Assembly: GCA_951406725.2 (NCBI GenBank)
Contig: OX597824.1
Coordinates: 65,968,001 to 66,032,000, forward strand
Length of the DNA: 64,000 bases
Direction: 5' to 3'
From: Octopus vulgaris
Lineage: Eukaryota
The notes under the pieces were generated by a model. It worked only from the letters and a program-made list of their open reading frames with translations. It ran no database searches and was not told the origin of the DNA. Made by a program: the position numbers and the translations under genes. Positions 2,572 through 64,000 of this stretch are shown here, in pieces (the first letter of the stretch is position 1; every line of letters starts with the position of its first letter).

Positions 2572-4094
2572 GTATGTATTACAGCAACCCTCTCACTGAA
2601 CCCCATCAATCTCCTGCTAACCTTTTTGATCCACACAGCTTTTAAACACTCTTTTTTTGCCATAAACATGCAATGTCTCATTGTTTGTTCCATGCTAAAC
2701 CTTTAGCTACACTCAGCGTATTTAATCTTTTTATTTACTTGAATTCATTATAACTAAAATCACTTCATCAAAATGTACATCACACATTTTTCAACATGCA
2801 ATACATAGTACTTTCTGGAAACGACAATAAAACATGTATATTGTACAATTAAAATGCATCACATCCTAGAGCACATCATATAATTCAACTTCATTCCCTT
2901 AATATATTTACAGTTTTATAATAGGCAACACTTCCTCTGTAACAACTCAACATTATTCATCACCTTAGCTACCATCCTAACTCTTTCTTAATGAGATACA
3001 ATCTCCCACATCTGAAACAGTGGACACATTCACACACATAATTGTTAGACTAGGAAGAAAACAACTACCTAATAGATAAAATCACTCTCACACACATTTG
3101 TCAGTCACTGTTTAGTTTCCTCTGAATCTGCTAACTCTATACAAGTATGTATATATATATACACTCACACACACACACACATAAATCTGCATGGTAAGTG
3201 CATAAGTATATAACATGTATATATTTAAAAGTTCCTCCTGTTTATAAATTCAGATGTGCTTTTACACACTCACACGCACACAATTGTGTGTTCACACTGG
3301 CATAAATTATAAGCAGGTGAAAAAGTACTCAATGCTTTTAGGTAGAGTGGAATAGCATTACGATCACCATCTGTTCAGAATATGACAACCTTCTGGTATT
3401 GGTGAATGAACAAAGGCAGCATAGGAAAGCCATGACTCTTTGGTCTTGCCTTGATCAAGACAAGCTCTCTAATACTGATGCGTCGATAAAATGCACCCAG
3501 TGCGCTATGTAAAATGCTTAGTAAATGAATGGAGACAACATAGTTTGGAAAGGACTCTTTGTTCTTACCAAGATCATGATAATTTCTTGAAGTAGTTGGA
3601 AAGACATACAGCCATAGAAAAAATGCCTAATATAGAACACAAGAATGACACTTTATTGACCTGTCTAGGAGGGTGCAAGCAGCGAATGAGAACTAAATCA
3701 GTTCAATAAACAGTCAGAGTAATGCTGCAGTTCTTTACAACACTAACCCACTCATCCCATGCCAGCATGGATAAGTGGATATGAAATGATGATGATGGCA
3801 TTGAATCATGGTTAAACTTCCAAAATCCAACTGAAATCTTGAAGACTTAATGCAAAATTTATTTTACAGTTTTAAATTATAAAGTTGTAATACACACAAT
3901 ATAAAATTTATCTTTCACTAAAGCACATCCTTTTAAATAACATCTGTCCAGAAAGTACTCTCTGTATTGTATACACAGTGTGATGAACATTAATAGCTGC
4001 CTAACATTAGCATACTAACAATTATTAATTCTGAAGGTAAGGCTGCTTCTTATTTCTTCTACTTATGTCATCTGTTTAATTCATATTGTACTTG

Positions 4095-4324: not shown

Positions 4325-5310
4325 CCTTGCAAGCTACACAGACGATATGAAAGTCTCATAGAAAATACAGAACCCCAGCGTTGTTGCACATCTGCAACAG
4401 GAGTTGGACTCAATTTACAGATGAGTTGAGGATAATAATATGCAGTTTAATGCTGAAAAATTCCAAGCCCTGCTCTACCAGCATCCAAAACTGAATATGA
4501 AACTTACAGGGTCCACTGGTCCACAGGGAATTTCAATCCCAGAGCCTAAATCAGTGAGGGACCTGGGTATCATAATGATACCTCTTTCCAAGTGCACATT
4601 ACCAGAATGGTGACAAAGTGTAGATGAGTGGCTGGATGGATCCTGAGAACATTCAGAACCAGAGATAAGAAAACGATGATGGTCCTCTGGAGGACATTTG
4701 TCCTTAGCCACCTGTATTACTATTCCCAGCTATAGTAACCCAATAGTGTGAAATTAACAGCGGACCTTGAAGCAATCCAGAGAAGATTCACAAAGAAGAT
4801 CATCTCTTTGCAACTGCTCAGCTACTGGGAAAAGCTGAAACAGCTAAGACTCTACTCCCTGGAGAGAAGGCGGGAGAGGTATGCAGTAATATACATCTGG
4901 AAGTTCCTGAAAGGAATTTCAATGCCAAAATTTGGCACTGAAAGCTACACCAATACCAAAACGGGATGACACTACATAGTGCCAAAGATCCCAGCAACAC
5001 CATCGCATTTCAGGACCAGTTACTGCAACAGCCTGGGTTTCAGTGGCCCACAGCTTTTTAATATTCTCCCAAAGAGCCTGAGGAACCTGCACAAAGTAGA
5101 TGTAGGCATTTTAAAATCAAAGCTGGACCTCTTCCTGTAAAGAGGAATCTAACTCATGGCAAGAGAGGCAAAGGAGGGTAGCTACATCAAATTCTATTCT
5201 TCACCAAGTGCCACATATTGGAGGAGGCTCTCAGTAATAACAGCATAGCAAAACGGCAGTGCATCAGCATGGCCGCAGCTCTGAGCTGAAACTACAGAAA
5301 AAATAAAAAG
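4325..5310 (+). mobile_element. 5'-truncated, decayed CR1/L2-group LINE (RT C-terminus plus 3' tail)
   Basis: YTDD-like motif at ~4335; NNMQFNAEKF; ORF 4748-4969 LEAIQRRFTK...LSYWEKLKQLRLYSLERRRER. Stops and frameshifts present. Stem-loop tail followed by an A-rich end. Confidence 0.85.
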
Positions 5311-5354: not shown

Positions 5355-7005
5355 TACTAGCAGAGATACCTGGCATTGCCCGTGTTACATGTAATTGAAG
5401 AATTAGACTTTTCTACTATATTTTCTGTAATGAACAGGACTATCTATGATTTGAGTTTCATCAAAATTGCAGATGAGTGTTCTTTCCCTCTTTACACACC
5501 CTAAAACAATTGTAATCATGACACATGTATCTCATACTACTGATTTTTATGTGCAGATTCCAAAATTCCAGTCTTATAGAACCTGCTAAAAGGATTTTGC
5601 TCCTGAAAAATGGAGGTCATGGAGCTCTAGAATGTGGAAGTTAAGGTCCCTATTGGGGGTGGGTGTCTAAGTTGAATTGTTAAGAATCTTTTTAACTTGG
5701 GTCTTATATCTATTGTTTAGATTTCTTTGAAATAGGAAATATATGTTCACTGGGTTTGTAAAAGAGAGCAAAGCTACAGGAAACCAAAAGACGAATGATC
5801 ACAATACGCAGTCAGCTACCATACCCTAGTTGTTATACCACTCCCAATGTAGGATTCCTCATGATACAGGTGACAGATACAGCCGTAAGATGCATTACTG
5901 ATCTATAGCAATTGGAAGGGTGTGACTCAACTCAAGCATTAACAACTGTGTGACGTGAGGGCTAAGGAGAAATGAAAGTGTCACCTCTGGAGTTTGCAAA
6001 TGACCACTATACTTATATGTAACTGGACAGAATAAATTTACAATCTATAAATGTCTTTGAATAACCAATCACTTATCTGGGAAGGCCCTGAAATCAATGT
6101 TACAATCTGGAGAATATGTGTGACCCAGTGATAATAAAAAGACTGAAAGGAGGTCTGCAACCAAATAACTTTACTCAACACTTTGCAACTGAATCAGTTG
6201 GGGCATATATGCCTCTCATTTACTTGACAGTTTATGCACCACATTGCAGAAATTACAATCTAAGTATATGTCAAAGCAAACTCTTACACTGTTGTACCAT
6301 TGAATTACAAATAATGCTCATCTTTTATGCTCAACTGACCCTACAGCTTCCAAGAGTATAACTGTATTCATCTTTGCTTAGATAAAATGACTAAATTGTG
6401 GGTGTTAAGTCCCCATGAAAGGGTGTTTCTAACTTGTAAGAAGATGAAATTTTAGAAATATTATTTCATTTGTGTCTATCTATGGTTAAAATTTCATCAA
6501 CAGCAAAAATATATGAATTGTCATGGGGTTATGGCCCTTATGCATAGAATATAATTTCCATTCAGTACTTTTGACCTAGTTTTGGAGCATAAAAGAAATG
6601 ACTAAAATTTGGGAATTAAGGCCCCCATTAGGGTGTCTTAGAATCCTCATGAGAAGTGGAACTTTATGAGTACTTCTTGATGTGTGTCAATTTCCCATGG
6701 TTGAAATTTCATAAACATCGAAAATTTATGAATTTTCATGGGGGTTTTGCCCCCTTTAAACCATCTGAAATTCAAACCAAACATATTGCATTATACCCAC
6801 CCTTATGCATTGAAACTAAGTTCCAAATATCATAAGGATCCATTCAGTAATTTTGGTCCATGAAATTGTATGAAACACACAGCATTACCCTTCTCCCTAG
6901 GCTTGGATTTTGTGTTCCAAATTTCATTAGGATCGATGCAGCAGTTTTCAAATGTATAAGTAACTCATGAACACACATAAAAACATTGATTTTTATATAA
7001 TAGAT
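5355..7005 (+). mobile_element. Helentron/DINE-1-like non-autonomous element (composite)
   Basis: Starts TACTAGCAG...CCTGGCATTGCCCGTGTT and ends TTTTATATAATAGAT. Similar termini at 42132 and 60366 (-). Confidence 0.55.
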
Positions 7006-16474: not shown

Positions 16475-17741
16475 TAGGGGTTAGACAAAATAATGGAAAC
16501 ACCTTAAAATTTCAAACAAATTTATTTTAATAGTGAGTAGGACTGCTTTTGACAGTAATTACAGCTTGAATTCTATGAGGTATGGACTTGTACAAAGTTT
16601 GAATTGTTTCCAAACGAATTTTTGTCCATTCTTCAGCTAAAACAGTCTTCAGTTCTTTTAGTGATGATGGTGGAGGATATCGACTCCTTACTTGTTTTTC
16701 TAAAATGCACCATAAATGTTCAATAATATTGAGATCAGGGGACTGTGGTGGCCAGATAAGATGTTCAACTTCACCAGAATGTTCTTCATGCCATTCAGTA
16801 ACAAATTTAGCTGTATGAATTGGTGCATTATCATCCTGAAAGATTGCGTTTCCCTTCAGAAACAGTTCCACAACCATAGGATGAATTTGATCAGATAAAA
16901 TGCTTAAATACTCTTGACTATTAATTCTGCCATGAAGTGAAACCATTGGGCCAGCACATTTCCAAGATATAGTCCCCCAGATCATCACAGATCCTCCTCC
17001 ATGTTTAACAGCTGGAAGAAGGCAGTCTGGGTCAAGTGCTTCTTTTGGCAGTCTCCACATGTATACTCAACCGGTGGTTGGAAATTAAAATTTATTAAAA
17101 TAAGGTAAAGGATGACTTGTCCAGGAAAATAACATTCGTCCACTACTCTAGGGAACGATTCTGTAGGTTTTTACTCAACTCTAAATGCTTTGCAACATTT
17201 GTTTTTGAAAGTAGTGGTTTTCTGATTGCAGTCCTCTCGTGAAATCTGGCTTTGTGCTGTGCCCAGCAAACGGTTTTTGTAGAAACTAGGTTCTCGAGGT
17301 GGTCATTAAGGTCTGCAGTAAGTTTGGGAGCTGTACTTTTGTGATCCTTTCTAACAATTCGCGTAAGAGTCAGACGGTCCTGATCTGAATGATTTGCTTT
17401 TCTTCCAGACTTTTGTTTTGACAAGGAGGTTTTTCCCTCTTTCTCAAAGGCTGTCATTACTTTTGTGACAGTACTTCTTGATACACCAAACATTTCAGCT
17501 GTTTTCATGACGCTGGTGCCTGCTATACAAACATCAACAATTTGACCTCTTTGAAAGTCCGATATATTTGTCATTTTAATGATTTTTCTGATGATATCTG
17601 AAAAGAAACAGCAATTTTAGCAAAACATTAAGCAACACTAATAATAAATCAAAATACATAAAAATAAACAAGCTTTTGACAATTTTATAGATATTTAAAA
17701 ATTATGATGCTAGGTGTTTCCATTATTTTGTCCAATCCTTG
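16475..17741 (-). mobile_element. Tc1-family transposon, DD36E type, full length with disrupted transposase
   Basis: ~29-bp TIRs (consensus CAGGGGTTGGACAAAATAATGGAAACACC) with TA on both sides. HTH ORF 17143-17574 and DDE ORF 16527-17060 (FQDDNAPIH...WPPQSPDLNIIE). Confidence 0.92.
16527..17574 (-). pseudogene. Tc1-like transposase pseudogene
   Basis: Two ORFs separated by a stop/frameshift around the first catalytic D region. Confidence 0.9.
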
Positions 17742-22955: not shown

Positions 22956-23019
22956 GTTGATATTCCACCTGTGCAGTTTGACTGGACTGGTAGTGGTCTT
23001 ACTAACCCATTAGAGCAAT
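22956..23019 (+). CDS. AFTPH: Aftiphilin coding exon (VDIPPVQFDWTGSGLTNPLEQ), phase 0 to 1
   Basis: Acceptor ttcAG and donor T|GTGAGC. Peptide matches the conserved aftiphilin PPVQFDWxxSGLTNPL motif. Confidence 0.92.
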
Positions 23020-29699: not shown

Positions 29700-32600
29700 T
29701 GTCTCTCCCAAGTATACAATTTTAGGGCTGCAAACATCAATGTTGGCACAATGAAGGAAAGATCTGTTGAGATTGTCGAAATGTTGGAGCGCCATCATGT
29801 CAATGTGTGTGGTCTGCAAGAAGTGAGATGGAAAGGAGCCTCTGCTAGATTCTTCATGGGTAAGAAGCAGAGGTTTTAATTCTTCTGGGTAGGCAGAAGT
29901 GGCGGAGTGGGTGGTGTAGGCATACTCTTAGTGGAAAAGTGGGTAGATAATGTAGTTGAAGTAGTCAGAGTGTGCAATAGGGTTATGAAGTTGAGACATG
30001 AATATATTAACAATTACATTTATCTTTGCCTATGCTCCACAGGCTGAGCTGGCTGATAATCAGAAGGACCAATTCTATGAGGTTCTTTTGCAGACTACCT
30101 CAATGACAAATGACAGAGACTTCATTATTGTGGTTGGCAACTTTAATGGACATGTTGGGCTGCATTCCCATGGATTCCATTGTGTTCATGGTGCTTATGG
30201 CTTTGGCACCAGGAATGAGGAAAGTACAAGGCTACTTGAGTTCTGTGATGCAAATAATCTTATGATTTGCAACACTAACTTTAGAAAGCCAACTAGCCAC
30301 CTAATTACTTATCAGTCTGGTGGAATATAAGCCAGGTTGATTACCTTCTCACCAGGCAAGGAGATAGGCAGATGTTCACAAATGCGAAGTCTTTCTCAGG
30401 TGAAGATTGTACACCCTAACATAGGCTACTAGGTAGTGACTTCAGAATTGGGGCTACAAAGACTCAAAGACATAAACCACATTGGAAAAGAAGATTATGG
30501 AAGTTCAAAGACCCCACAAACCAACACAAATTTAGAGACATTCTACTGGAGGCCTCTGGTGATAGAGAGGAAGAGGAGGAGGAAGGGATATATAGCTTAG
30601 AGGACAACTGGAAGTTGTTGAGGGACAATTTACTGGGTGCTGCTGACCAAATCTGTGGTTGGTGCCAAGTCCCAACCAAATTGTGGGTGACTTGGTGGTG
30701 GAGCTAAAAGGGAGGCTAGGCAACAGGTTTACATAGCTAAAAAAATAGCAGAAGGTAAGAAGTTCACCAATGTTATGCAGTGTGAGGATCAGAGGCATGA
30801 GGTGTTCAGGATTGCAAAGCAGTGTATCAGAGAAAATAGAGATGTGGTAGGTGAGAAATGTGTGCGAATGGATAAAGGTAAGCTTACACTTAGTGACTCA
30901 GAGAAGAAAGATGTGTGGAGATGCCATTATGACAGGTTGTTAAACGTGGAGAATGATTGGGAGGAGTGTCTTTCAAATATTGAACCAGTTGAAGGACCAG
31001 CCATCAGAGTGGATAGCAGTATAATAGATAAGGCAATTAAGAAAATGAAGACTGAGAAAGCCCCAGGACCATCAGGTATCACTGCTGAGATGATTAAAAT
31101 ATCAGGCAGTGTGGGATACAGTCCAGTCACTTGCATAGTTAATCAGGTTATTCAAGAAGGCATCATCCCCAAAGACTGGTGTAGCAGTATTATAGTCAGC
31201 TGCTATATGGGTAAAGGTGGTGCCTTAGATAGAAACAACTACAGAGGTATCAGACTACTTTACCATGTCATGAAAGATACAGAGAGAGTTATATCTCAAC
31301 TAATTAGGGATAGAATTAAACTAGATGAGATGCAGTTTGGTTTTGATCTTGGGAGAAGTACCACAGATGTTGTCTTCATAGTGCGATAGTTGTAAGAAAA
31401 GTATTTGGCCAAAAGTAAGCCATTGTACTTAGTCTTCATCAACCTGGAGGAAGCTTTCGACAGGGTTCATTGCTCTCTTATTTGGTAGTCTCTAGGGAAG
31501 CTAGGAGTAGAGGAGTGGTTTGTTAGTGCAGTTCAAGCCATGTACACAAATGTTATTAGTTAAGATGTGAGTTGGCCTTGAATACAATGATGAATTTAAT
31601 GTACAAGTTAGAGTACACCAGGGATCAGTTCTTAGTCCACTCTTATTTATCATGGTTTTTCAGGCTATAACAGGTGAATTCAAAACTGGATGCCCATGGG
31701 AACTACTATATGCTGATGATCTTGCTCTTATTGCAGAATTTGAAGCAAAATTGGAGAGGAAGTTCCAGGTTTGGAAGCAAAACCTGGAATCAAAGGGCCT
31801 CAAAGTTAACATAGCTAAGACTAAAGTTGATGTTAGTGAGAAAGGAGATAAGACTATCATTCTGGCTGGCAAATGTCCCTGTTCAATATGTAGGCAAGGG
31901 GTGGGATGTAATTCCATTCGCTGTATCAAATGTAAACTATGGCTGCATAAGAGATGCAGTGGAATTGTGGGAAGGTTATCAGATAAGGTTATTTTCATGT
32001 GTGGTAGATGCGCAGGAACAGAAGGCACTAAGAGCACAAGGGACTTAAACTCCCTCAAATGCCCAGGAGGCTCTCTTGAGGTAGTAGATAATTTCTGCTA
32101 TTTAGGCGACCAAATTAGTAATGGTGGTGGATACTCTGAAAATATTGTTTCTAGAATACAAATAGAGTGGAGGAAATTCAGCGAACTACTACCTCTGTTG
32201 GCAGCAAAAGGACTCTCTCTTAGAGTGAAAGGTAGATTGTATGATGCTTGTGTGAAAATAACTACATTATGTGGGCTCTGACTACAGAGGACAAATGTAG
32301 ACTGGAGCGGAATGAAGGTAGTATGCTGTGTTGGATTTGCAACATCAGTAAGCATGACTGACAAAGCACAACTGTGTTGAGAGAAAAGTTAGGCATAAGA
32401 GGAATTAAATGTGGTATATAGGAGAGGTGACTGCATTGGTTTGGATATGTGAATGCATATGAGTGAAGACACTGTATACAGATGTGCCTGTTGTTGAAAA
32501 GGATGGTATCTGTGGAAGAGGGAGACCCAGGAAGATAAGGGATGAAGTGGTGAGGACTGCTTTTAGGATGTTTGGGCTCATGGAGGAAGTTACAGTGGAC

Positions 32601-33640
32601 TGAGATGTTTGGCGATATGAGATCCTAGAGAAGACCCATCCATGAAACTGAGTGCTAAGAGAGTTGTGTCCCACCCACATGTAACAACACACTTTTCACC
32701 CACTCTATCTTATGAAATTGAACTACAACTCCTCTTCTAATTGCATCTTTCTCTTCCTCACATTTCCTCTTCATAAATTATGATTGTTTTCCAATCCCTT
32801 TTCTTGCCCTGCTTTCTGTATTGCTACTCCCCACACCCCCAACACCCACACTCACGTCCTATTTTTCTAACTAGGTTCTACACTCATATTCTTGTTACTT
32901 GTGAGTATATCCTAGCATTACACCATCTCTCTTCTGCTCTCTCTTACACTTTTACTGTTTCTTACTCTCTCCTTCTCTTGTTTATCCTCTGACTAGGTAA
33001 CCAAGTATCACCTTTACATCAGCACACTTATTTTTGGCCTCTTTCTTGTTCCTCTCTCTCTCACTCTCTCTCTTTCTCTCTCTCATTGGGTAACTATGTA
33101 CCTCCTCTATAGCAAGACACCTATTTCTGCCTCTCTATTTCCCTGTTACACTCTAACCTTTCATCATTTGATACTGGATCACCTAGTCTAATGCTCCCTC
33201 TGTTGTGGCAAGACACCTGCTTCTGTCTCTCTGTCACTTTATCACACTCCAACTTTTCATCATCTGACACAAGTTCCCCTCATCAAATGCTTTACCCCTC
33301 TCAAAATTCCTTACCTTGTGTGTTACTTGGTTACCCTGCCAGTACTGGTGCCACATGAAAAGCATCCAGTCCACACTGTAATGTGGTTGGCATTTGGAAG
33401 AGCATCCAGCTGTAAAAATCATGCCAAAACTAACTTCACCTGTGCTAGTGCCATGTAAAAGCAATGAGTCCACTCTGCAGGGTGGTTGGTGTTAGGAAGG
33501 GCATCCAGCCATAAAATCCCTGCCAAAACATACAAAGTAGCCAAGGGTTGTTTTTCTATTTGGCCGGCTCCTGCCAGCTATCCTATCCATGCATGCATGG
33601 AAGATGGACATTAAATAATGATGATGATGATGATGATGAT
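29700..33640 (+). mobile_element. Near full-length decayed RTE-clade LINE (AP endonuclease + RT + PHD-type finger; 3' UTR ending in (GAT)n)
   Basis: Endonuclease motifs NVGTM, LQEVRW, AYAPQ, GNFNGHVG. RT motifs KAPGPSGI, NYRGIRLL, QFGF, HQGSVLSPLLF, YADD. Many stops and frameshifts. Confidence 0.93.
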
Positions 33641-37147: not shown

Positions 37148-37228
37148 CGGCAGCATCGGCAAATACTTTGGACTTGGACTTCCTTGTGGTGAAAGACTCT
37201 CCTGAAACTACGATATCAAAAACTGGAG
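37148..37228 (+). CDS. AFTPH: Aftiphilin coding exon ((S)AASANTLDLDFLVVKDSPETTISKTG), 81 nt, phase 1 to 1, clathrin-box-like LDLD
   Basis: Acceptor ttttcAG and donor G|GTTAGT. In frame with both neighbouring exons. TLDLDF corresponds to vertebrate LLNLDF. Confidence 0.88.
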
Positions 37229-49542: not shown

Positions 49543-50465
49543 TCTGCACAGATTAGGCTAGCACCCAGATTTTCATTCTCTATTTATTGGTCTTTTTTCA
49601 CTCACATTGTTAATACTGTTAGCATGAGTTGTGGGTGAGAGCTGGGGAAACACTAACTACCACATGTCCATTGCAGCATTTTAACTGTAATAGCATATTA
49701 CTTGCAACACATCAGCAGCAGTATCCACTGCAACACATTGGCTGCAGTATTTAGCTTTAGGTGCTTACTGCAGTACATCAACTGCAGTTTGCAGTTGATT
49801 ATGTCTACTGCAGTATATAGCTGTTGCTGTCCACTGCAACACATCAACTGCTGTATGTAGTTGTTTCTGAACACTGTAACAGATCAGTAGCTTTTTTTTT
49901 ACAGACAACATAATACAAATGAGTGCCTATGTTGTATATTCTTTCAAATACAGTACCTGTAAACTTCCATAGATAAATGCTATTTGGCATCTTCTTGTTA
50001 CTGAATAGTGATGTACATCTCCAGTAATTGACTGGTACTTGTTTTATTAACCCCTGGTATTTGAACTCAGGATGTAAAAAGCTGTAATTAAATATCACTT
50101 CAGTGATTCGGCCAATGTATTTCTAATTGTTTGTTCTGCAATATACTCATTTTGTTTCTTAGGAATTCTCTCAATACTGGGTCCTGTACTAGTGGTGACA
50201 TTTGTTCTGTTGTATTATCATAAACTAATGACAATCAGGAATGTTTTGGTAAATTGTTTGAATTAAACACTCAGCTATTTGCTCAATCATCAGTTTGTCT
50301 AGATTGTGCTTCTGTTGAACTTGAACCTGCATGTTGCCTGCTCATCTATAACAACTTGAGTAAATTGTGTAATGGATGCATTTAGAATTCACTCCATTTT
50401 TATAGTTGACAATTATATGAATAAAAAAAAAATGCTTTTCTTCTCATTTTCTCTTGTCTTTTTAG

Positions 50466-50692
50466 TGTTTGAGTCCGAACTGCTAGGTGGCCCTTTGAAG
50501 CCATTACCTTCTTTCAAGCCAATGCAGCCCCTTGAGGACATGTTAGCCAACACCAAGTCGACGACCGTGAAGAGAGGACACACATCAGATGAGCACTTGA
50601 GTCAGGAAGCTACTGTAATACTGCAGACTCTTCCTGATTTGTCTTTCATGCACGCTAAAGTTTTGATGTTTCCAGTACGTCAGACTAACTAA
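50466..50692 (+). CDS. AFTPH: Aftiphilin terminal coding exon (...EHLSQEATVILQTLPDLSFMHAKVLMFPVRQTN*)
   Basis: Long pyrimidine tract plus tttAG. EHLSxEA...LPDLxFMHAKVLMFP is the aftiphilin C-terminal signature. Phase 1 fits the upstream exons. Confidence 0.95.
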
Positions 50693-52879
50693 AAGCAACA
50701 AAAAAAAAAAGACCCAAACAATAAAAGAAAAATAACAAAACAAGAAGAAAACAAAAGCAGCACAGAAAATGGAGGTAGGGTCTTGTATAATGACACACCT
50801 TCTTCTCGACAAACCGTTGGTAGTTTCTGCGGTTTAAGGCAACTGAGATATATCAATGTTGATTTGGTGTTTATTTCTCTTGTACAACCAGGCTGAAAGT
50901 ACTTTTCTGTTAAAAGTTTGTTTCATTGAAAATTTAACCAGTTCGTAGGGGAGGGGAAGAACCTTTGAAAAGAGTGTGAGGGATTAACCTCAAAGGTTGA
51001 AGGCTTCCTTATTGAACTTCTTTCTCTTGCTGATATGTTGAGCAATGAAACTTTGATAAATCTTGTAGATAAGGAAAAAAAATACCAAAATCCTTGAAAG
51101 AAACTGAATAAAAAAAACTAAAATGGTATTGGGAAGTTAATTCTGGTCTGGATACATTCCTTTTATGCTTTATTTTTAATAGGTAAATGAAAGAAGAAGA
51201 GGGAAGACAGTTTTTGTTTTTAAATTTGATATGCTATATATATATATATATATATATAAATAAGGGCTAACAGTAGGATGTGATTGGTATAAGATATTGT
51301 TCTGAATGGTTTAGGGAGTGGAAGAAATTTTCAAGTGAGATGACCCTGTGGACATTCTTCCTGTTCTATAAAAGTAAATATAAGTCACTGTTGACATGTC
51401 ATGGTGGAAGTGGAATTTCACAGAGAAATACTTCTGTTTATTGCTTGGCTTTGTAGATGAGAATGGGGTAGAATACAAATCTTTGTATGTATATATATAT
51501 ATATATATATATATAATATGGGCAGCATGTTAAGCATACTTTAGATATAGCTGTATATGTTAAGTGTATATTTAGATGCAGCTGTTACTATAAAGGCATG
51601 TATGAAGGATTCCCAATTGCAATATGTTGTTTGAAGAAATGTTATCTTTATTTGATTGATTGTTTGGTGCAGTGTTTGAAAGAATGGATAAAAATTCAGT
51701 TTTGAAATATGTATTCTATTAAAGCTAAATTAAACGACAATTAATTTGTCATTTTGTGTGTGTGTGTGCATGCGTGCATTTATAAAAAAAAATTGGTTGA
51801 GTCATTAGAGCATTGATTAGATTGCTTATGTAATCCTTTTTGCTCTGAGTTCAAATCTTGCTGAGGTCAGCTTTATCTTTTATCCTTTCGGATTTGGGGT
51901 TGACTCTTTCTGTCTGTTTGTCCCTCTTTCTTGAAGAAACTAGTTGTAGTCAGATCTGGAAAGGAACGGGTTCCACAAAATCTAAAAATGCCCAGGACAC
52001 ACTGTATCATGATAGTGTCCCTGAGACTCCACCAAAGAGTTGAGGGCCCAAGGCAAGGCAAAGGAAACGTATGTGTGTGTATATATATATATGTGTGTGT
52101 GTGTGTGAGTGAAATGTGTGTGTATGTATATATATCATATACTGGGAGCCAGAAGTGATTCCTTTCCATATATGATTAAATATATTAATTTTTTTTAAAG
52201 TATTTTAGTTGGTTTTATCTGTTGTGGGTTTGGCTATATTTTGCCACTACTTAATCTGCTGTATGTTTTTGACTCTTGATCACCTAATTTCCTGCAGACT
52301 TTTGTCATTTTCATTTCTTGTCCTGAATTAAGGGAACGACTTGTTGGTTTTGTTGTTGATGGCTTACAAGGAATTAAGACTTAAGCTAGTTTTGAAAAAA
52401 AAAAAAAAAAAAAAAGAAAGAAAGAAAGCGAATTATAATCTTTTTAATTCTGTTAGTAAAGGAAAAAAGAAAAAAAACTATATAGAAATATATAACCAAG
52501 TTCTTCCCCATCACTGCCTTCAAAATAAGAAAAACATTTCCTTGTTAAATAGCAAGCTCAAACCAAGTAATTTTGCAATGGCTGTAAAATAGTATTTTTT
52601 TCTTATTTTCTCTTTCAAATCTTTTTGCATAATCTTATTCTAGATTAAGAATTGTATGAATTGTGTGTGTGTGTGTGTGGGGGGGTCAGAGCTGTTGAGT
52701 GCAAGGCATGCTAAGTTGAACTGAGTCTAATCTACAGCCCAGTTTTGATTCCCAACTTTAGCTATTTCACTAATACCTATTAACTTCAAGCATATCATTT
52801 TCTTCCTCTTTTTGATAAAGCCTTCTAGGTATCACTTTAGTGTGCAGTTTACCTGGCCATTTACACTAAAGCATGCAGT

Positions 52880-52943
52880 CTAACCCTAACCCTAACCTAA
52901 TCCTAGCCTTAAACCCTAACCTAACCCTAAACCCTGACCTAAA
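52880..52943. repeat. Degenerate (CCCTAA)n telomere-like tract within a short IR-bounded element (~52827-53008)
   Basis: CTAACCCTAACCCTAACCTAATCCTAGCC...; flanks ACTTTAGTGTG / CACACTAAAGT are inverted. Confidence 0.7.
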
Positions 52944-54522
52944 TCAGTTCATTTTACAATGTAAACTATGGATATTGTGGTAGACCACACACTAAAGTAG
53001 CACTACCTTGAGCCTTATATCAGAAGCTGTTGTTTTATTTTTTGCTAGGTTTTCGGAACTTTATGCTTTAATGTTATATAGAGATACTCTTGGTTTAGCG
53101 GCTTCATGTTTAATTTAATTCTGTTTGTTATATTATTGAAAATAATTAATAATTCTAATGAAAAATGATAATTAATATCAATATTTTACACATGCTAGTT
53201 TGAGACATAGTTGCTAAAATTTTTGAACAATTAAGTCTAATCTTATTGTGAGTTTTTAAGGTTTGTTCTTAGAAGGTCAGTTGTTGAAGTAAAGGGTTAT
53301 TTATCTGTAACCCTTACCTTCATTTTAACCCTAACCTGACCATGGGCTCTCATAGCTTTTATTCTTTATAATTTGTCTTGCTTATCCACATTTCAATTTT
53401 GTCTATAAAAATATCTGGATGTTTTCAAAAGAAAACTGCCCCTTATTATTACTATACTTAAAAATGCCATATTACTCTATAAACTGAAGTGATATGGCCC
53501 CTTTATAACTTTACAAACTATATTGAAACAGCTCCTTACTGTTCTGTAAATTGTTCTGGAATGCCTCTTCCTTGCATCATGAACCCAAGCATTATACTTA
53601 TATGGCATTTAATTACTTTGTAAACTATATTGAAAAGTATAGTTTGCAGTATATCTTATAAATCTGTTTTAACAGAACTCCTTATCACTCTGTAAAGTAA
53701 ACAGAAAAGGCTTCCTTAATGTTATGTATATTGTGTATTGAGCTACCTTAGCATATGTTTAGTATGTGTATTCTGTAAAGATGATGAAATATGAGAATAA
53801 CTGATGGGATGTTGAGATTTATTTCAGAAAGGCAATCTGTTATTGATCCACTGAATGTGACATGGATATTTTTTATTGTTTCATGATTTATAGTCAGGTA
53901 ACTATTACATTCATATTACGTGACAAAGAATATTTACTCTATACTTCATATTTAGGAGGGATTTCCAGACATTTTTTATAGAATTCTGTTTTTTAATTAT
54001 TTTCTTAAAAAATTTTAAAATGTAACTAGTTGAAATTGAGTCTTTAAATTGCCTCATTTCTTTTTTAATTTTAGAAATACACAGTGTTTTTCTCTCTCTC
54101 TCATTTTTTTTTTGTAGTCATTCTTCAAGTCATACTCATAGTATCATAACTGAATTGCAATGCAGGGACATGACTATCTCTTGTTTTATTGCAACCCCAA
54201 ACATTCCTAATTCATTGTTGGTTCATTTTTAAGAATTGGAAAAAAGAATATGTTGTACTTTGTTGGGTTTTCTCGAATGTTAGTTATGTTGGCTTTTGTA
54301 TTTGTCAGTCTACAACAAACCTTAAACTACTTCAAGCAATAACTTATCCCACAAATATAGGTGGCATGTAATTTTGGAAAAAAAAAAGCCTCGGGTTTGA
54401 CAAGAATAATAATACCAGTGCTGAATGACAAAAGAAATGGTATATTTCACTTTAAAAATGAGAAATGAAAAATTCATTAATCAAGGCTTACATCACATCA
54501 GCTTCTTATACATTGAAAAATG

Positions 54523-54703
54523 TATGGTCACTTTTGCCTCAGTTCAGTTGACCAAGTCCCTTGCTCTACAAAAATTGCCTTTGCGTACAGTTAAAAGAAA
54601 TCAAGTGACAAACCCCTTAAAGTAAAGAGCATGTACTGGTGTTTTTGTTGTGCTACCAGCACTAGTGATGTCACCAAACTCCATACCCCTCAACAGTGGA
54701 AAT
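54523..54703 (+). repeat. Circularly permuted identical copy of 56036-56142 + 55892-55965 with 9-bp flanking duplication
   Basis: Direct base-by-base comparison. AAATGTATG occurs at 54518-54526 and 54700-54708. Confidence 0.95.
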
Positions 54704-57126
54704 GTATGTTATGAATCAGAATTGTTTCTAAATTATATTTTTAATGGCATAAAAATGTAGTGGAGAAGCAGAAATGGTAGAGTGCTGGACTAAATGCCTT
54801 GCTGTATTTTGTCTCATCCCTCTACATTCTGTGTACAAATCTCATAGGGTGGGTTTCAACCTTTCCTTTCTTCCCTCCAGATCCAACTAAGTTATATAGT
54901 TGCTCGACTCGGTTGACTATACCTCTTACCCTACATATCTGTGTAGTCTTTTGCTATTAATATATCTTTATTATTCTATTGAAACTAAATCTTCAACAGA
55001 TTAGATATAGATTTAGGTCATAATTGTCATGAATTACATTGAACTGAGTCAATAGAATGTTAAAATACTTGTTGAAAAAAGAGTTAATAGTCATTGTTAT
55101 TTAACTCCAGGTTCAATCAGAATGAGCAGACCTACGATTAAAAGCGTTTGGATAAAGACCATCCCATTTTTGTTGTGATATCACTCTATGTTGTTTATGG
55201 CAAATATATTCATCTCTTAATATTCAAGGAACCTAGCCATAAATGTGTGATTTGAGGTGGTACAGCTTACTTCTACAAACAGCAGGAGCACAAAAAAATA
55301 CTGAGTTCAAACTGTCTTATGGTTATAGATTCAAGAAAGAAGGAGAGAATAAATTGCATTCTTTAGTCTGATTTGCTTGCTTCTTTGATACACTATACAA
55401 AGATATGATCTAAAACAGTGGTGTCACAACATTCAAATGTGTTTACAGGACACTCTGTTGGCTATGGTTAGTATTAGACAAGGCGTATGACAATTCCAGA
55501 ATTACACTATACACTATTGCCTCGTTGCAGGACATTCAATGTTGTAACACCATGTTAGCTTGAAAAAGGAAAACCTGTTGAATTAAATGATGATGATGAT
55601 AATGGTGATCATGTTATTGTATGTTTATTGTGAAATCAAATTCATGATCAAGTCTTGATTCCTGGTTTGAACTGCTTCATTCTTATGCCTGTTCTAATTA
55701 TTCTTTTCCTTTCCTTATAAAATACTGAGTGTTGAAATTTACATATCTCTCCTTTTTCATCATCATTAGAAATTCATGTGTTGGATAGTTTGATAGGATC
55801 CAATAGGTCCAAGGACTGTATTGTGCTCCAGTGTCTGCCTTGGCCTGGTTTCTATGGCTTGATGCCCTTCCTAATATCAACCACTTTACAGCATGTACTG
55901 GTGTTTTTGTTGTGCTACCAGCACTAGTGATGTCACCAAACTCCATACCCCTCAACAGTGGAAATTGTCCAGCCTAACAAGAGCAACAAGCTTTATTTAA
56001 TATTGTGTGTCATTGTTCTAGCTTTATATTCCACCTATGGTCACTTTTGCCTCAGTTCAGTTGACCAAGTCCCTTGCTCTACAAAAATTGCCTTTGCGTA
56101 CAGTTAAAAGAAATCAAGTGACAAACCCCTTAAAGTAAAGAGGTAAATTTCCAGTAAACTTAGTCTGCAAACCTAGTTTGGTTTTGATTCTTAATTGTCA
56201 TCTAACCATCCCTAAAATATAGGGCTTTTGTGCCTAGTGAGAATTGGTAAAAAGCATTAGAAAGAATAATTATGTTGATTGATTTTCTTCTTGCTTTTAT
56301 AAATATCCTTTCTTTCTGATAACTCTTTCATTTTAATGAACAGATTACTTGTGCTTCAATCTGATTTTCAGTATAATCAAAATTTTGGAGGAGTTTAAGT
56401 AACCTCGGCAACATTATATATTGTTATATGTTATGCTAATGTTGACCAACTCAAATTTCCTTATATTCAAATTATAAAACTTGGATTGAGATTTCAGTTT
56501 TAATATGGTTATTTTAGTATGGATGGTCTCAAGTGGATTGGTGTTAATAGGGTTAATATCATTACTTTGATTCCAGTCATGTTGTTTATATATGAGTTGT
56601 TTCTAAAAACAAAAAAGAAAGAAAAAACTTGGCTGTTATTGAATATGCATTGTTTCTACAACCTGACTCAGATTTCTGAATGCCTTCAAGTTTCTTGATG
56701 TCTTGGTTTTTATTAAATCAGCTTTAAACACTATCCACTCTCTCTTTCCCTTGTCCTCACACATGCATCCCTTTGTTTCAGTCTCTGATTTTGAAAACCA
56801 TTTTATCACTTTTAGCCTCTTAGCTATCAGATTGGGCAGTGTGACTGTTTAGAGAGAGACATACATTTATATTTTCTGCTGTAGTCTACCATCAGTATTG
56901 GTTATTATATAGAATCATGATGTAGCTATTGAAAAGCCAAGACTTTTAATCTCCCAGTGATCATTGGTGTGTATGTATGCATGCAAGTATGTGTATGTAT
57001 ACAAGTATTGAAATCAACACATGTAAACATTAATTCATGTGTGTGTCTGTATTTTATGTGTGTGCATGTGTGTTTGGCTTTCTCAAACAAGAAATTCTAA
57101 ATAAGCTTTGCAATTGACAAAAAAAA

Positions 57127-57154
57127 AATAAATAAAAATATAAAAATAAATAAA
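57127..57154 (+). terminator. Cluster of AATAAA polyadenylation signals, candidate distal AFTPH 3' end
   Basis: AATAAA at 57127, 57131, 57145 and 57149, followed by T-rich sequence. Confidence 0.4.
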
Positions 57155-58789
57155 GCTTGCTATTTATTGGCATGCCAGTCTTTATTTCAAAGCCAAATAA
57201 TATAAGAGTGGATGTATATAGCTTGTTTATAGGATTTGGTTGAAATTCTAAATAGAGAGTGAACTTCTCCTCCCCCATGGTCATCAAGTGCCTTTATGGA
57301 TTTTCTTCATTTCAATGATTAATGCCAGTAAGTAGAAGCAGCAGTCTTTTCTCTACGCAAGGAAACATTAGCTTTAGGCTTTCTACTCATCTATATTGAT
57401 TGGTTGATTAGAACAATAAAAAAAAAACTCTATGTTCCTATTGAGCTCACTTTCTCATTCATCTGAACTTAGCTTTGGGCAAGGCAAGATGGTCTGGGCA
57501 GAGATCAGTTTGGGGAAGGCAAAAACAGTCAGGGCAGAGAGCAGTTTAAAATTTATTCAAAACAGATTTGAAAACTTCAATAATAATCAGATTTAAGTTA
57601 TTATTCTTTCTTTCATTGGGAGGAAGAAAAATTTTTTAAAACTCCCCCAAAACATGTTTTTTTTTCATCTGTAAAATTTGTTTTAATAAAACGGTTTTTG
57701 TTGGCTACACTTTAAATCTTTTTAATTGAAAAAAAAAAAAAAAAGCTCAATCTCCATCAGGTGCTCATGCATTATCAGTATGACTTCAGAACTTCAGAAC
57801 ATTCTACCAACATTGCTACAAAGAACAATTTTCTAAGAGAAATTTGGCAATCCTTGTGAAATATTTTTAATGTCAAGAATACTTTATTCAAACTTGTTTT
57901 CTTTTTATCCATCACCTCTGTTTGATGTTATGCTATATAAGAACATTTTTTCCTAGTTGAAAAACTGTTGAGACATGAGTTTTTCACGTAGGGAAATAAA
58001 CTTAGTTCTTGTTGAATGAGAACAAGCCAGCCAGTTGCAGCTGGATATAGACAATAATCTCTGTAGATATTATCTATATCCAGAAGTCAAGAGGTAAGGG
58101 GAAAATAAACTGTTTCAACTAGAAATTGCACCTATGTTACAGACATATATCAAAACAGACCAATGAAAAAGTCCTCTGTATCACACTGCATGCTAGAAAT
58201 AGTAGTAACATCTCCTTCAAATTATACCCTATCAGCTGAAAAAACAGTGAAAATGAACATATTGGATAATGTAGTCCTAGCTATACTGTATGAAAGAAAG
58301 ATAGGATTTTTATAGACAGAACACTTTCAATTATAAGTCACCGCAAGAACAACAGCACTTTGAACCTTTTCAAGGACTTTGAGGAAGGAAAGAAGTTATC
58401 CATAGATGAGAGATCTAACTTAAATACTTGCAACAATGTAAGATAAGGCTGAGACGTTCTTAACTTAGGCATGGGATACCTTTTACGAGAAGCAGGCTGC
58501 ATGAGACATGGCTCATCATCATGTGGGCCACACTATTAAAAAAAAATTAAAGGTAATTATATTTTGTTGGTGTGCCATTCAGAAAATCCTATAGGCTGCA
58601 GTTTGCTCATGACTATTTTAAATAGATTAAGTTTACTTCTCAATTAAAGCTGATCAGGAGCTGAACAACAACTTGTGAACTGCAACACTGTAGAAAACAA
58701 ATTATGTAAGGGGCTTTTTTTTTTAATGCAACAAATTTTTACTTTTCTCAATGTTTATATTCTTCACCAAAAGATATACACATATCTAC

Positions 58790-58820
<31 letters not shown>

Positions 58821-58969
58821 GTGTTTGTGTGTGTATAGTTAAATGGATGACTGCTGGTGTTGTGTTTAGAGCTCCATCCAGTCTATTTCCAAACAAGTTT
58901 ATATCATTTGTTCCTATGTATGTTAAATCATTTTTTAAAACCTTTGCATTAGATGTCCCCAATGATCCA

Positions 58970-59515
58970 TTGTAATTAATGTAATTAACTGGCTCCCTCC
59001 CCCAAATTTCAGGCCTTGTGCCTATTTTGGAAAGAATCATATTATTGTCACCCCATTAGTAAGTTAGCTTATGCATTATCCTCTCTTGGGAAGTTATCAC
59101 TAAAAATTGGGCTTATTATTGAGGTGATGAGCTGGCAGAATCATTAGCATTGCCAGACAAAATACTTAGCTGTATTTCTTCTGGCTCTTTATATTCTGGG
59201 TTCAAATGCAGCTGAGGTCAACTTTGCCTTTCATTCTTTTGGGGTTGATAAAATATGTACCAGACAGATACTAAGTTGATGCAATAGATTTGCTCCCTCT
59301 GGCTAAAATTGCTGACCTTGTGCCAAAATTTAAAATTTCTACTACTACTAAGGTGGTAGTATCATTAATACACCAAACAAAATGCTTAGCCTTTCATTCT
59401 TTTGGGGTCAATGAAATTACCAGTCGAGTGTAAGGGGTTGATGTAATCAACTAGCCTCCTCCGCCAAAATGTCAGGCCCTTGTACCTGTAGTAGAAAGAA
59501 CTACTACTGCTACTA
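58970..59515 (+). mobile_element. MetaSINE-like tandem copies
   Basis: Same head, core and tail as 20402-20632. Confidence 0.75.
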
Positions 59516-60022
59516 TAGAAAGAGAAGTGCGTTGACAGAATTTTTAGAACCCTGCAGTATTTATTTCAGCTCTTTATATTCTAACCCATGCTATCATGGA
59601 GAAGTGGACAGTAGTTTGATTGCTGATTTAGAGTGTCCCTTTGAACAAAATACCTTGTTTTTGAACAAAATACTTTATAGTCCAAGTTCAAATCCTTCAA
59701 TGAAACCAAATACAATATCGAACCAAATATCCATCAAGCTTGGGACCGGAAGTGACCTGGATTTTCTGGAATCTGGAGGCAGCTTTTACATATATACTTA
59801 GAATATAAAATAAACTTTGAAAAATAATGAACTAAATTGTATTTAACGGATTCAAATTAATACATGTCTAAAACAGGGTTTGTTTGATATTTATTAATCC
59901 ATTTAAACTTCTTAAAATATATCATACTGCACCATATATACAGTATAAGGTTGTTGGATAAAAATTAAACGAAGAAAAGTAAAGAACCTTTTTTCCTATT
60001 TAACAGATATAGATACAATTTA

Positions 60023-60366
60023 ATCTCTCTTTATATAAAGCTGAAGCTGTCTGTGTATGGCAGGTTTAACAGCCTTCAACTAACACTATCTCCTCCGAGA
60101 TCCTGCGGCACAAGTTGACCAAAATTCAAATCGGACCATGTTAACACCAAAAATTATTTACATCAAAAAGGTGCTTTTTTTCTATGAAAATCCCTATTTT
60201 TAAAATTTTTTTACTGCTGTGTTGTCATTTTTCGGTGTATTTCAACCAGAAAAATGTTGACTTAAAGAGAAAAACAAGCTACATAATGCAAAATTTTTAC
60301 TTTCCAAAAATTCCAATTCTAAAGGGTTGAAATAAACCCGAGCAATGCCAGGCGATACTGCTAGTA
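60023..60366 (-). mobile_element. Helentron/DINE-1-like element
   Basis: Minus strand starts TACTAGCAGTATCGCCTGGCATTGCTCGGGTTT and ends TTTATATAAAGAGAGAT. Confidence 0.6.
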
Positions 60367-62866
60367 TGCTTCTAAAGCAGAGTGTATTTAATTTTTAACA
60401 ATCCACATAAAAAAGTAAAGAACAAAACTAGTTTAACACACTGTATGCAAATTAACTATCTTCACAAACAAGGTCTATTTACAAAATATAGGGTACAATA
60501 TATTGCATGATATTACACAGTATTCCTGGAAATTCTAGATTTCTGGAAGATAGATAAGAGATTTGGTACTGTGCCAATTATGTACTGGGTTTGATTTGAT
60601 TGTTCCTTGCCCCCAACCTTGTCCTTAAAAAAGAAATGGTCTTGTGTGTATGCTAGAAACTCATCATCATTATTATAAAAGAAACATTACAGTTATGGAC
60701 TACATGGGTTGCAGTATTCAGTTATGTATCTTTACATTGTGAGTGAAAATCATCTGGAATTGATTTGTTTTATCATACCACAGGAAGAAGAAAAAGAACC
60801 AGTATTGGCATCAATTCAGTTGACTTGTGTATCACTTCTTTACAAACTTGTGGCTTTATGCCAAATTTGGGGAATTTTATCTAATTCAATGAATGTTTAA
60901 AACATTAAAAATATCTATTTACTTATTAAAACCAAATCAAATTGCCCAAGTTATTTCCACTATAAAGAGATGTTTTTATGAACCCCATTTGTTTTCATAT
61001 TTCTGTTGAAATACCCTGCCATTGTTTTAATCAATTTTGAAAATAATGAATAATTTAATAAAATAATTTTGTCATTACTGAGCTGGTATTTGGAACACAA
61101 ATTAACATGAAATTTTTAAGGAAGGTTTTTATTTAGATCAATTTAAAGCAGGAAGTGGCAGAGTGATTTCATGAGAGTTAATACAAATCTCGCTTTTGAC
61201 ACATGTGGACTGACAAAATTTAGAGAATGCTGGACAAAATATCTTGCAGTGTTTAGTAGTGCCACTTTATACTCTATGTTCAACTCTATCTTTTAGTCAA
61301 ACACTGGGACTACTATAATCAACTGTTCCATGCCCCAAACGTGTAGTCCTGTGTCTATGCTCAAAACCACCAGAAGCCAGTAATGAGAGCTTAGGCTGAA
61401 AGGCAGAACTAGCTGATGTGAATACTGGAGCAGCTTCTTGTTGCTTTTTTCAGTACTGTAATAAGTAAGCTAATTAAACATTTGTTAATTTACAGTAACT
61501 CTGCTTCTCACAGCTTCAAAAATTGGTATCTTTTTACTGCAATCTGGACCAAGTTATAGATACCATGCAGTGTCTGTGGCAGGATATGGAGTAGTGAGCC
61601 TTCAGCTAGCAGTCCAATTGTCTAAACTATTTGCAATTCAATGGACAACACTGTAGAGTTATTTCCCCTGGTTCTCATTCCATAGACTAATGCGGAATTA
61701 GAAGCTATTCTAGTTAGAAATGAACATGAATAATCCGTGGCTCAGTAGGGTCTTTATAGCACATTAAACTAATATTAATTGAACCCTTTAGCATTTAATC
61801 TAGCCATAATCAGCCCAAATATTCTGCCTGTTTTATTTTAAAACCTACCTTATAACGTCATTCTAAAAATATACAAACACATCTTTGATATCTTGAAGCT
61901 ACAAGTGTAATCAATTCAAAACAATATAAATAAGAAATACATTCGACAAAAGTGCTTTCTCTCAATAAATTTTCCAATCCTGTTAGAAACCAGAAATTTT
62001 GATGAAATGCAGTCAATCCAGTGTAAAAACCGTGAAGATAGCTATTGCATGATTTTTCAATGACAGTTGGTGAACATTATAAGTTTGGGCTTTTCCTATT
62101 GTTGTAATTTTTACCTATTGTCACATCATTTTCACCTGCCCAGGTAAGTTGATTTTCACATATTTACAAGTTATTGATTTCTAGGTGTTGATTTCCTGTC
62201 ATAGAGCTTAATTTGTGCTCTAGTAATCTCTAACTTGGACGCTGCACAACTCTCATTAAAAAAACATTCCAGGATAGGCCTACATTATAAATTAGTGTTA
62301 TTTACTCTCATCACAATAATAAACCTACCATTATATCAATAAAGTAATGTTCTTTTTAATCCTCACCATTTACTAGTAAAAGCATCAATGCACTCCTTCA
62401 TAAATAAATCTCTATAAATTTCATGCTGACGTGTACAGAAGATACTGAAATGTTACTGATTATTTTTTCCAAGTCTAAGCTCTTTCCCTCAAATACTATT
62501 TAAATCATTAATGAATAATATTACCAAGCTTTAACTCAATGTTTGAGGCATTATTTGCCATGATGTTAAAAAATTAAAGGAAAAATACCCATACATTTAC
62601 TTAATAAACTGCAACAGTTGCTGTTAATTATGAACAAGACTTTAAAGGTTTACATAGAAAAACTGAGATCAAATGAAAAGAAAGTCTTGATGATAATTTT
62701 GCAAATTCATTATTTCCTTTTATTGATTACGAATATCAAATAATATATATTAATATGGTTGTAATATAAATATATATATATATATTTTTTTTTTAAATTA
62801 GCATGTTCTTGAATAATCAGGAAGGAATTGTCAGCAGTGAGGGTATCATCTGTTTGGCTCCATTCA

Positions 62867-62929
62867 TCACCCAGCTTCTTGTTTACATTTATCAACAACA
62901 GAAACTGGTGGCAATATTTTTTTGAAATC
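62867..62929 (-). CDS. Possible terminal exon of an unidentified convergent gene (DFKKILPPVSVVDKCKQEAG* if phase 0)
   Basis: Minus-strand acceptor tttctctctaactgtAG, non-repetitive GC-richer body, TGA. No homology recognised. Confidence 0.3.
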   Translation of the reverse strand, partial: DFKKILPPVSVVDKCKQEAG

Positions 62930-63119
62930 CTACAGTTAGAGAGAAATTGCTATTAACAGATTTGACTTGCTGAAATTTTAAAATTTACAGAGGGTGCGTG
63001 TATGCATGCAAGTGGGTGTATGAAGGTATGTGTTATGCATGATGTTTCTGAGTTTTGACCATTAGTGAAGCTCTTAATCATTCAGGATACTCACATTTGG
63101 GTAACATGACCTCTGGATA

Positions 63120-63352
63120 TGATGATCATCATCATCACCATCATTTAACGTTTGTTTCCCATACTGGCATGAGTTGGACAGTTTAACAAGGGGCTGGCAA
63201 GCTGGAGAGCTGCACCAAGTTCCAAATTTCTGTTTTGGCATGATTCCTGTGGCTTGATGCCCTGCCTAATGCCAACCACTTTACAGAGTGTATTTTTACA
63301 TAATGCCAGCACAAGTGCTCTTTATGTGGTACCAGCACAGGTGCTTTTTACA
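63120..63352 (-). mobile_element. RTE 3'-end-derived short element
   Basis: (CAT)n TTAACG...CCATACTGGCATG...GATGCCCTGCCTAATGCCAACCAC is the reverse complement of the 40110-40458 family. Confidence 0.75.
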
Positions 63353-64000
63353 TCCATTCTTAGCAATATTTAATCAATTACATATAACAAACAAAACATG
63401 GATTTTATAAGCAGACACTTCCACCACATCGTTCCTATGAATATGTTTGCTTGCATATATGCACATCAGTGTATGTGTGTGTGTTATTGTCAGACCTCAA
63501 GGGACACTCTACTAAATCATCAATCAAACTACTGTCCACTGTATTGTTTTACAGGCATATGCTCTTGTCACTGACACTCATTTCTCATGACCTCTTATTG
63601 ACAAGGATAATGACAGCATCACTGATTCTAACGAGAATTTCAAGGAAGAGCAGATGTAAATAAGCATGCAGATACATGCATGAGCACACACACACACACA
63701 CACACACACACAATGGCCTTCTTTTCAGTGTCCATCTACCAAATCCACTTACAAGGCTTTGGTTAACCCAGGGCTATAGTAGAAGACAATTGTCCAATAT
63801 ATTACACAGTAGGACAAAACTTGAAACCACATCTTTGGGAATCATAAAGCCATCCATCCTAAAAGAAAAGACATTAGATAATATGATCCTAGATAAACTG
63901 TATCTGGAAACATAAAGGATGAATATCCATGGATGGAATGCTTTTTAGTCATAGATCTGCTTGATCAGAGTTCAACTGGGACTAAACCACAAGACAGGAG

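Follow-up and report, generated by a model that had tools for sequence, protein, structure and literature searches.

The 3′ region of the aftiphilin gene (AFTPH) of Octopus vulgaris carries a short insert made of two pieces copied, in swapped order, from a segment about 1.2 kb away, and the join between the pieces reads like a back-splice junction. The insert lies in a window of 64,000 nucleotides (GCA_951406725.2, contig OX597824.1, positions 65,968,001 to 66,032,000 of the forward strand), whose coordinates are used throughout. How did a junction of this kind come to stand in genomic DNA? The initial annotation of the window proposed that a circular RNA (circRNA) from the 3′ untranslated region (UTR) had been reverse-transcribed and integrated beside its source. 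Our analysis suggests that the insert most likely arose when a staggered germline break in the 3′ region of aftiphilin was repaired from a DNA template, by two-ended or serial copying, a reading to which we assign a probability of about one half.

Anatomy, setting and age of the insert

The two pieces were delimited by exact sequence comparison. Inserted piece A (54523..54629, + strand) is identical over 107 bp to 56036-56142, with no extension possible either way. Inserted piece B (54630..54703, + strand, 74 bp) is identical to 55892-55965, and its match gains the two bases AG leftward, giving 76 bp of exact identity between 54628-54703 and 55890-55965. The order of the pieces is swapped relative to the 251-base source segment (55892..56142, + strand), which is also the extent of the hypothetical circle. 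Seventy source bases (55966..56035, + strand) were not copied; they are covered by a contig at 55936-56065 in the sequencing runs and form the part that would be diagnostic for a real circle. The 9-mer AAATGTATG occurs at 54518-54526 and again at 54700-54708 (both + strand) as a flanking duplication of the insert. It shares four bases with copied sequence at each end: the last four bases of the left copy, TATG, also match source 56036-56039, and the first four of the right copy, AAAT, also match 55962-55965. Microhomologies of 4, 2 and 4 bp are thus found at the left end, the internal join (AG, 54628..54629, + strand) and the right end, and there is no polyA or polyT tail. The net gain at the site is 182 bases, comprising 173 copied bases and one 9-bp duplicate. 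In the source, GTAAAT follows directly after 56142, and CCACTTTACAG stands just before 55892, with CCTAAT further upstream. The permuted identities, the overlapping 9-bp duplication and these motifs are all as the initial annotation described them. Its distance of ~1.3 kb is corrected to 1,192 bases from the insertion site, which lies upstream, to the start of the source with the insert removed (1.2-1.5 kb range overall). Among 40 candidates scored of 4564, the only matches of the unique part (query 237-343) in its own genome (2.8 Gb, 227 contigs) were the insert and the source.

The transcribed strand is set by the last coding exon of aftiphilin, with its stop codon, at 50466..50692 (+ strand), where 75/75 residues equal the C-terminus of the Octopus sinensis protein (PF15045). 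Two further aftiphilin exons lie at about 22956-23019 and 37148-37228. Insert and source are both downstream of the last coding exon and on the same + strand. At least 91% of the sequence words of 53000-56950 were present in 20 of the 24 runs listed, and 18 of the 24 were guessed to be RNA; the guessed-RNA runs hold 22-135 million letters, compared with 3,306 million in the DNA run. These run sizes suggest that the region is a transcribed 3′ UTR, none of the runs being on record as RNA, and the 3′ UTR setting on the + strand proposed earlier is supported. The segment was rejected as coding sequence or structured RNA, since it holds no + strand open reading frame (ORF) of at least 90 codons and neither insert nor source has an Rfam match; the five weak matches at 50000-60000 are all far below the gathering score. 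The aftiphilin protein is expected to be unaffected, the insert merely repeating 173 bases of 3′ UTR.

Four of the 24 listed runs, from four studies, were compared with the window (X1, X4, X9 and X16). Three of them are RNA-like; the fourth, X9, is possibly the source of the assembly and is not independent. In 4/4 runs both outer junctions are spanned by contigs, one running from the left flank to 54552 within piece A and the other starting at 54674 in piece B and entering the right flank, and piece A itself appears as a single 107-base contig at about the summed depth in 4/4 runs. A contig over the internal join (54600-54657) is listed in X1 and X16; for X4, the depth of this contig was recovered from the bin table. 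No empty-site joint, skipping the insert, is listed in any of the four runs compared. X16, which carries a second organism label, differs from the window by 7 substitutions and 3 indels in 3,951 bases, with the insert still present. Because the outer junctions are bridged in all four runs under two organism labels, the insert is neither a misassembly nor private. An assembly artefact, to which the 100% identity of both pieces with the source might point, therefore has next to no probability: at most one of the four runs is the assembly source, and the internal join is listed in two runs and inferred from bin depth in a third. The contigs of the four runs speak against the misassembly that the initial annotation had considered, and short of long-read confirmation the insert is truly in the genome.

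The copies differ from the source at 0/181 bases (upper 95% bound 1.6%). The insert predates the small split between X16 and the window, yet young given the identical copies, barring gene conversion. The phrase 'very recently' in the initial annotation was too strong for an insert found in every run compared, including the one under the second label. A 33-base stretch at 54768-54800 is probably a short shared repeat: in each of the three RNA-like runs, contigs from other places match it and loose ends occur on either side.

Two-ended copying as the favoured origin

In the favoured explanation, a break with a 9-base stagger would have occurred at 54518-54526. The left 3′ end would pair via TATG at 56036 and copy rightward to 56142, and the right 3′ end would pair via AAAT at 55962-55965 and copy leftward to 55890. 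Because these landing points would be crossed, 70 bases apart, the two copies would diverge, so that the order is swapped and 70 bases go missing although no circle is involved. The new strands would then join on the shared AG, and fill-in would leave the 9-bp duplication. The same product could arise from one strand switching three times on 4, 2 and 4 bp of microhomology. Under DNA-templated repair, the GT-AG look of the join would be a coincidence surfaced by the scanning of many windows, and the sole feature left to chance. Template switching at the DNA level, which the initial annotation had listed as an alternative, fits the anatomy at least as well as the reading that it preferred, and has a precedent (PMC2671141).

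That precedent is the proximal repair-mediated duplication described by Pace et al. 2009 (PMC2671141). As reported there, 824 of 1,136 human duplicons lie <5 kb from their donor, their mean length is 162 bp, and distances show an apparent peak near 1,200 bp that the authors flag as a possible method bias. Microhomology together with target duplication was present in 5/39 proximal cases inspected. The same report gives 20 two-donor chimeras, 5 of them with a second donor <3.5 kb away, explained by invasion of both ends and re-annealing on microhomology. Our insert resembles this type in its proximity to the donor (~1.2 kb, within the <5 kb class), its length (173-181 bp vs the mean of 162), its microhomology at both ends, its short target duplication, its lack of a polyA tail and its two donor pieces joined on short microhomology. 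In contrast to the published type, both donors come from one 251-base segment and are on the same strand, swapped and joined on GT-AG; the published type was described for vertebrates, whereas the present case is from a cephalopod. Judged by its sequence, the insert appears to have the testable features of a two-donor proximal repair-mediated duplication, although identical copies would not separate a DNA from an RNA template.

Swapped blocks with 2-bp microhomology at the join, as present here, would also result if a 251-bp circle of DNA had formed near the break by closure on the AG microhomology and 173 of its bases had been copied or ligated in. Swapped order is an accepted mark of circular DNA intermediates, and duplications via circular DNA share both the swapped blocks and the microhomology at their joins (PMC7188851, PMC7450558). 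However, those published cases are segmental duplications >1 kb (PMC7188851, PMC7450558), whereas here 173 of 251 bases were placed locally with a target duplication. The whole circle is not represented, 70/251 bases (55966-56035) being missing; an extra event is needed beyond two-ended repair; and the GT-AG join is explained no better than by the repair model. We regard a DNA circle as unlikely.

Local multi-piece copying is common in this genome. The background sample comprised 179 evenly spaced 10-kb stretches (1.79 Mb, contigs C1-C19 only), scaled from 20 to 100 to 179, with 1/180 falling beyond its contig. Pairs had to be non-tandem, local, 35-1000 bp long and at least 90% identical; 14.6% of the sequence was masked as tandem repeat, and a pair was removed before the count, as belonging to a repeat family, if it matched other stretches within 5 identity points. 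This gave 68 local pairs in 48/179 stretches, 35 direct and 33 inverted, with a median length of 100 bp and a median spacing of 446 bases. Adjacent pieces from different local donors (multi-piece joints) were found in 7 stretches, and same-strand joints read GT-AG in 0/8 cases, a number too small to test enrichment.

Several of these stretches are of interest in their own right. At L090:4277-4378, a same-strand two-donor insertion lies in a TA run, with its donors (4591-4641 and 3923-3965) on either side and a 7-base filler at the join. L119:7019-7173, next to TA repeats, is a local insertion from two donors 19 bases apart (6566-6668 and 6688-6741), between which the strand switches at a 2-bp overlap, a lariat-type or Penelope-like geometry. 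Complex local rearrangements of inverted and repeated pieces, several adjoining TA repeats, occur at L020:4700-6010, L058:7380-8360, L143:7680-9110, L079:1160-1380 and L123:9450-9970.

The splice-like join and the search for a circle

On the gene's strand the join reads GT-AG in exact register, as donor 56142 joined to the upstream acceptor 55892. The candidate donor GAG/GTAAAT (56140..56148, + strand) matches 7/9 positions of the splice consensus. The candidate acceptor (55869..55891, + strand) consists of CAG, 13/20 pyrimidines and a branch-like CCTAAT, and with 13 pyrimidines vs 16, 16 and 18 falls below the three real acceptors of aftiphilin in the window. Contigs at 56113-56950 cross the donor unspliced in 4/4 runs, and contigs at 54674-55919 (X1, X16) and 55846-55919 (X4) cross the acceptor unspliced. 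The contigs of all three RNA-like runs thus pass through both sites, whereas published circRNA-derived copies join real exon ends. No spliced joint at 55892 or 56142 is listed in the three RNA-like runs, whose contigs drop rare forms, leave 261 loose ends unseen and lack a positive splice control.

The acceptor lies in an old high-copy repeat fragment (55775..55938, - strand) that supplies both its AG and the CTAA motif. The fragment has 56 matches in 1.79 Mb (~31 per Mb) at a mean identity of 78%. It also reverse-matches 33341-33534, downstream of reverse transcriptase (RT) ORFs at 30691-32281, in a region that ends in a GAT run near 33620-33640. We read 55775-55938 as a probable antisense fragment of the 3′ tail of a long interspersed nuclear element (LINE)-like element, perhaps of the RTE type. 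AG is present in 30/45 and CTAA in 38/45 of the repeat copies that cover the acceptor site. The acceptor-like AG and the branch-like motif are recurrent in this repeat, a correction to the initial annotation. Across the repeat (55775-55938 on the - strand, 33341-33534 and 63229-63292), the antisense strand shows a branch-like CTAA together with a CAG acceptor in 24/45 copies.

Every word of the circle is already present in the genomic insert. Because the linear sequence with the insert already holds all circle words, contigs are blind to a circle and depth alone can hint at one. A circle would add equally to join, gap, A and B, and join + gap - B was used as an estimate, likewise with A. On the B side the balance was -0.9 (X1), -6.2 (X16) and -1.9 (X4), against depths of 37-160. 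The X4 contig at 55846-55919, immediately upstream of the circle, is about as deep (123) as the gap contig (115), and this similarity speaks against a large circle share in X4. Coverage varies two- to three-fold along the stretch, the A-side and B-side balances disagree, and the library type is not on record. Collectively, the three RNA-like runs show no clear circle excess in depth, and the use of these splice sites assumed by the initial annotation found no support in them.

Flanking inverted repeats that promote back-splicing are common, though not required. Comparison of 50693-55891 with 56143-64000 revealed no flanking inverted repeat of note, the only reverse match being a 30-bp simple repeat. 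A 6-base inverted repeat, ACTTTA, beside both join ends was set aside as chance, being reached by 33% of random pairs. In octopus, circRNAs are reported to be low overall, with 296 left after a filter to known splice sites (PMC9699675); because that set is limited to known splice sites, a candidate with cryptic sites would drop out of it. The word 'aftiphilin' is absent from the four supplementary files of PMC9699675 searched, among which no circRNA list was seen.

DNA-templated repair has to be weighed against several observations that count against it. The null for the join was formed by all joins closing a circle of 100-1000 bases within 50693-57600. GT-AG on the + strand was found in 0.59% of the 278,715 such joins with at least 2 bp of microhomology, and the splice strength of our site (donor at least 7/9, YAG acceptor with at least 12/20 pyrimidines) in 0.014%, a figure that overstates the surprise since its thresholds were chosen after seeing the site. 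The donor has the same score, 7/9, as both real aftiphilin donors in the window. The depth balance on the A side was +30, +19 and +16 (X1, X16 and X4), as a circle would give, and is explained by uneven coverage. The 68 background pairs are uncurated, some being parts of larger tandem duplications or maybe retroelement arms in TA repeats. No second event with the swapped geometry was found in the 1.79 Mb, which bounds its base rate only from above (~2 per Mb). The target duplication, finally, is deduced from the window alone, the empty allele never having been seen.

The join matches a canonical back-splice far better than chance predicts, and the donor-to-upstream-acceptor reading of the initial annotation is in that sense upheld, at a chance level of 0.59% for plain GT-AG. 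About 1,000 windows of the genome were scanned, so some selection effect is real. As a rough weighing, we put the likelihood ratio from the splice match at several hundred to a few thousand and set it against an opposing prior of about equal size; this prior is a judgement and not a measurement.

Possible RNA templates

A circRNA origin is the strongest rival to DNA-templated repair. A 251-nt circRNA, back-spliced from cryptic 3′ UTR sites, would have templated the patch of a nearby germline break in its own gene and left an inherited back-splice junction. The right end would prime via AAAT, reverse transcription would run through B, across the join and through A, and TATG would then join the left end; the enzyme at work on the break could be either a repair polymerase or the reverse transcriptase of a LINE or Penelope element. 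A single circle would account for order and join in one pass. The exact-register GT-AG on the transcribed strand, the donor equal to real ones, the presence of the region end to end in small RNA-like runs, and the sense orientation of an insert with target duplication and priming-like microhomology are all consistent with this route. RNA-templated break repair has been shown in human cells, where it is rare (113 whole-intron deletions among 73,030 tumour deletions; PMC12065846), R-loops form between circular RNAs and genomic DNA (PMC13478747), some circRNAs have copies in the genome (PMC4897178), and an RTE-class LINE is transcribed in octopus (10.1101/2021.01.24.427974).

Against a circRNA template stand the two sites that are not listed as spliced, the lack of a clear depth excess and of flanking inverted repeats, and a weak acceptor that recurs throughout a repeat matched ~31 times per Mb. 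The route requires an unseen cryptic circle and its use at its own locus, where the linear transcript should greatly outnumber the circle as a template. A weaker point is that copy and source show zero A-to-G differences. The circRNA-derived pseudogenes of Dong et al. 2016 (PMC4897178) are similar to the present insert in their non-colinear join and lack of a polyA tail. However, those described use real exon ends, joining annotated exons of a detected circRNA (for example RFWD2 exon 6 to exon 2; PMC4897178), whereas here the sites are cryptic and inside a terminal exon, the circle is putative and the copy lies within the parent gene. RNA-templated break repair (2025, PMC12065846) would likewise act at a locus that is transcribed and leave a splice junction in its DNA, but the scar described there is a whole-intron deletion from linear mRNA over long homology, and priming here would be on 4 bases only. 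The word 'circular' is absent from the main text of that paper. No inherited, local, circRNA-templated insertion was found in full-text literature searches, with most subscription papers outside their scope, and the portions consulted of the review of circRNA R-loops (PMC13478747) and of the RNA-templated repair paper (PMC12065846) contain no such case. We consider a circRNA template a realistic alternative, though less probable than DNA-templated repair.

The other RNA route would be ordinary retrotransposition, driven by a LINE, of a circular or trans-spliced RNA whose landing close to its source was accidental. It would fit the 9-bp target duplication, the A-rich 3′ priming match and the LINE-like RT remnants in the window. 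By simple arithmetic, untargeted landing within 1.5 kb in a 2.8-Gb genome has a chance of about one in a million. No dispersed copies of the unique part were scored elsewhere in the genome among the candidates described above. In the published human set, polyA/T tails were found in 0/39 proximal cases vs 17/29 distant ones (PMC2671141). The sense transcript carries the repeat fragment in antisense orientation relative to the LINE tail, so recruitment of the LINE enzyme is not expected. This route is highly improbable, and the proposal of the initial annotation finds no support insofar as it implies ordinary LINE retrotransposition, while its circRNA template is kept as the possibility weighed above. 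All readings other than DNA-templated repair, a circRNA template and a DNA circle are, taken together, very unlikely.

The window contains further repeats and element remnants. An aftiphilin intron harbours, at 29995-33640 (+ strand), a LINE-like element that is decayed but still shows RT matches (RVT_1) and has a GAT tail, and broken transposase-like ORFs with a DDE_3 match lie at 16527-17616 (- strand). The region at 889-1246 (360 bases) is 81% identical to its own reverse complement. A short degenerate telomere-like CTAACC array is found at 52880-52942, in the putative 3′ UTR, and a 36-base unit in two tandem copies, 82% alike, at 57474-57547.

Antisense Alus give rise to cryptic exons in primates, and by analogy the LINE-tail-like repeat could be a frequent source of cryptic exons in octopus. 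If the insert arose by DNA repair, it would be an ordinary clean scar that places a perfect fake back-splice junction in a linear mRNA. Such a junction would mislead circRNA callers on a reference free of the insert and mask a true circle on a reference that bears it. If a circRNA was instead the template, the insert would preserve, in heritable form, an instance of circRNA-templated repair at the parent locus, linking circRNA R-loops with RNA-templated break repair, and sense-strand GT-AG enrichment at permuted local insertions would be its countable signature across the genome.

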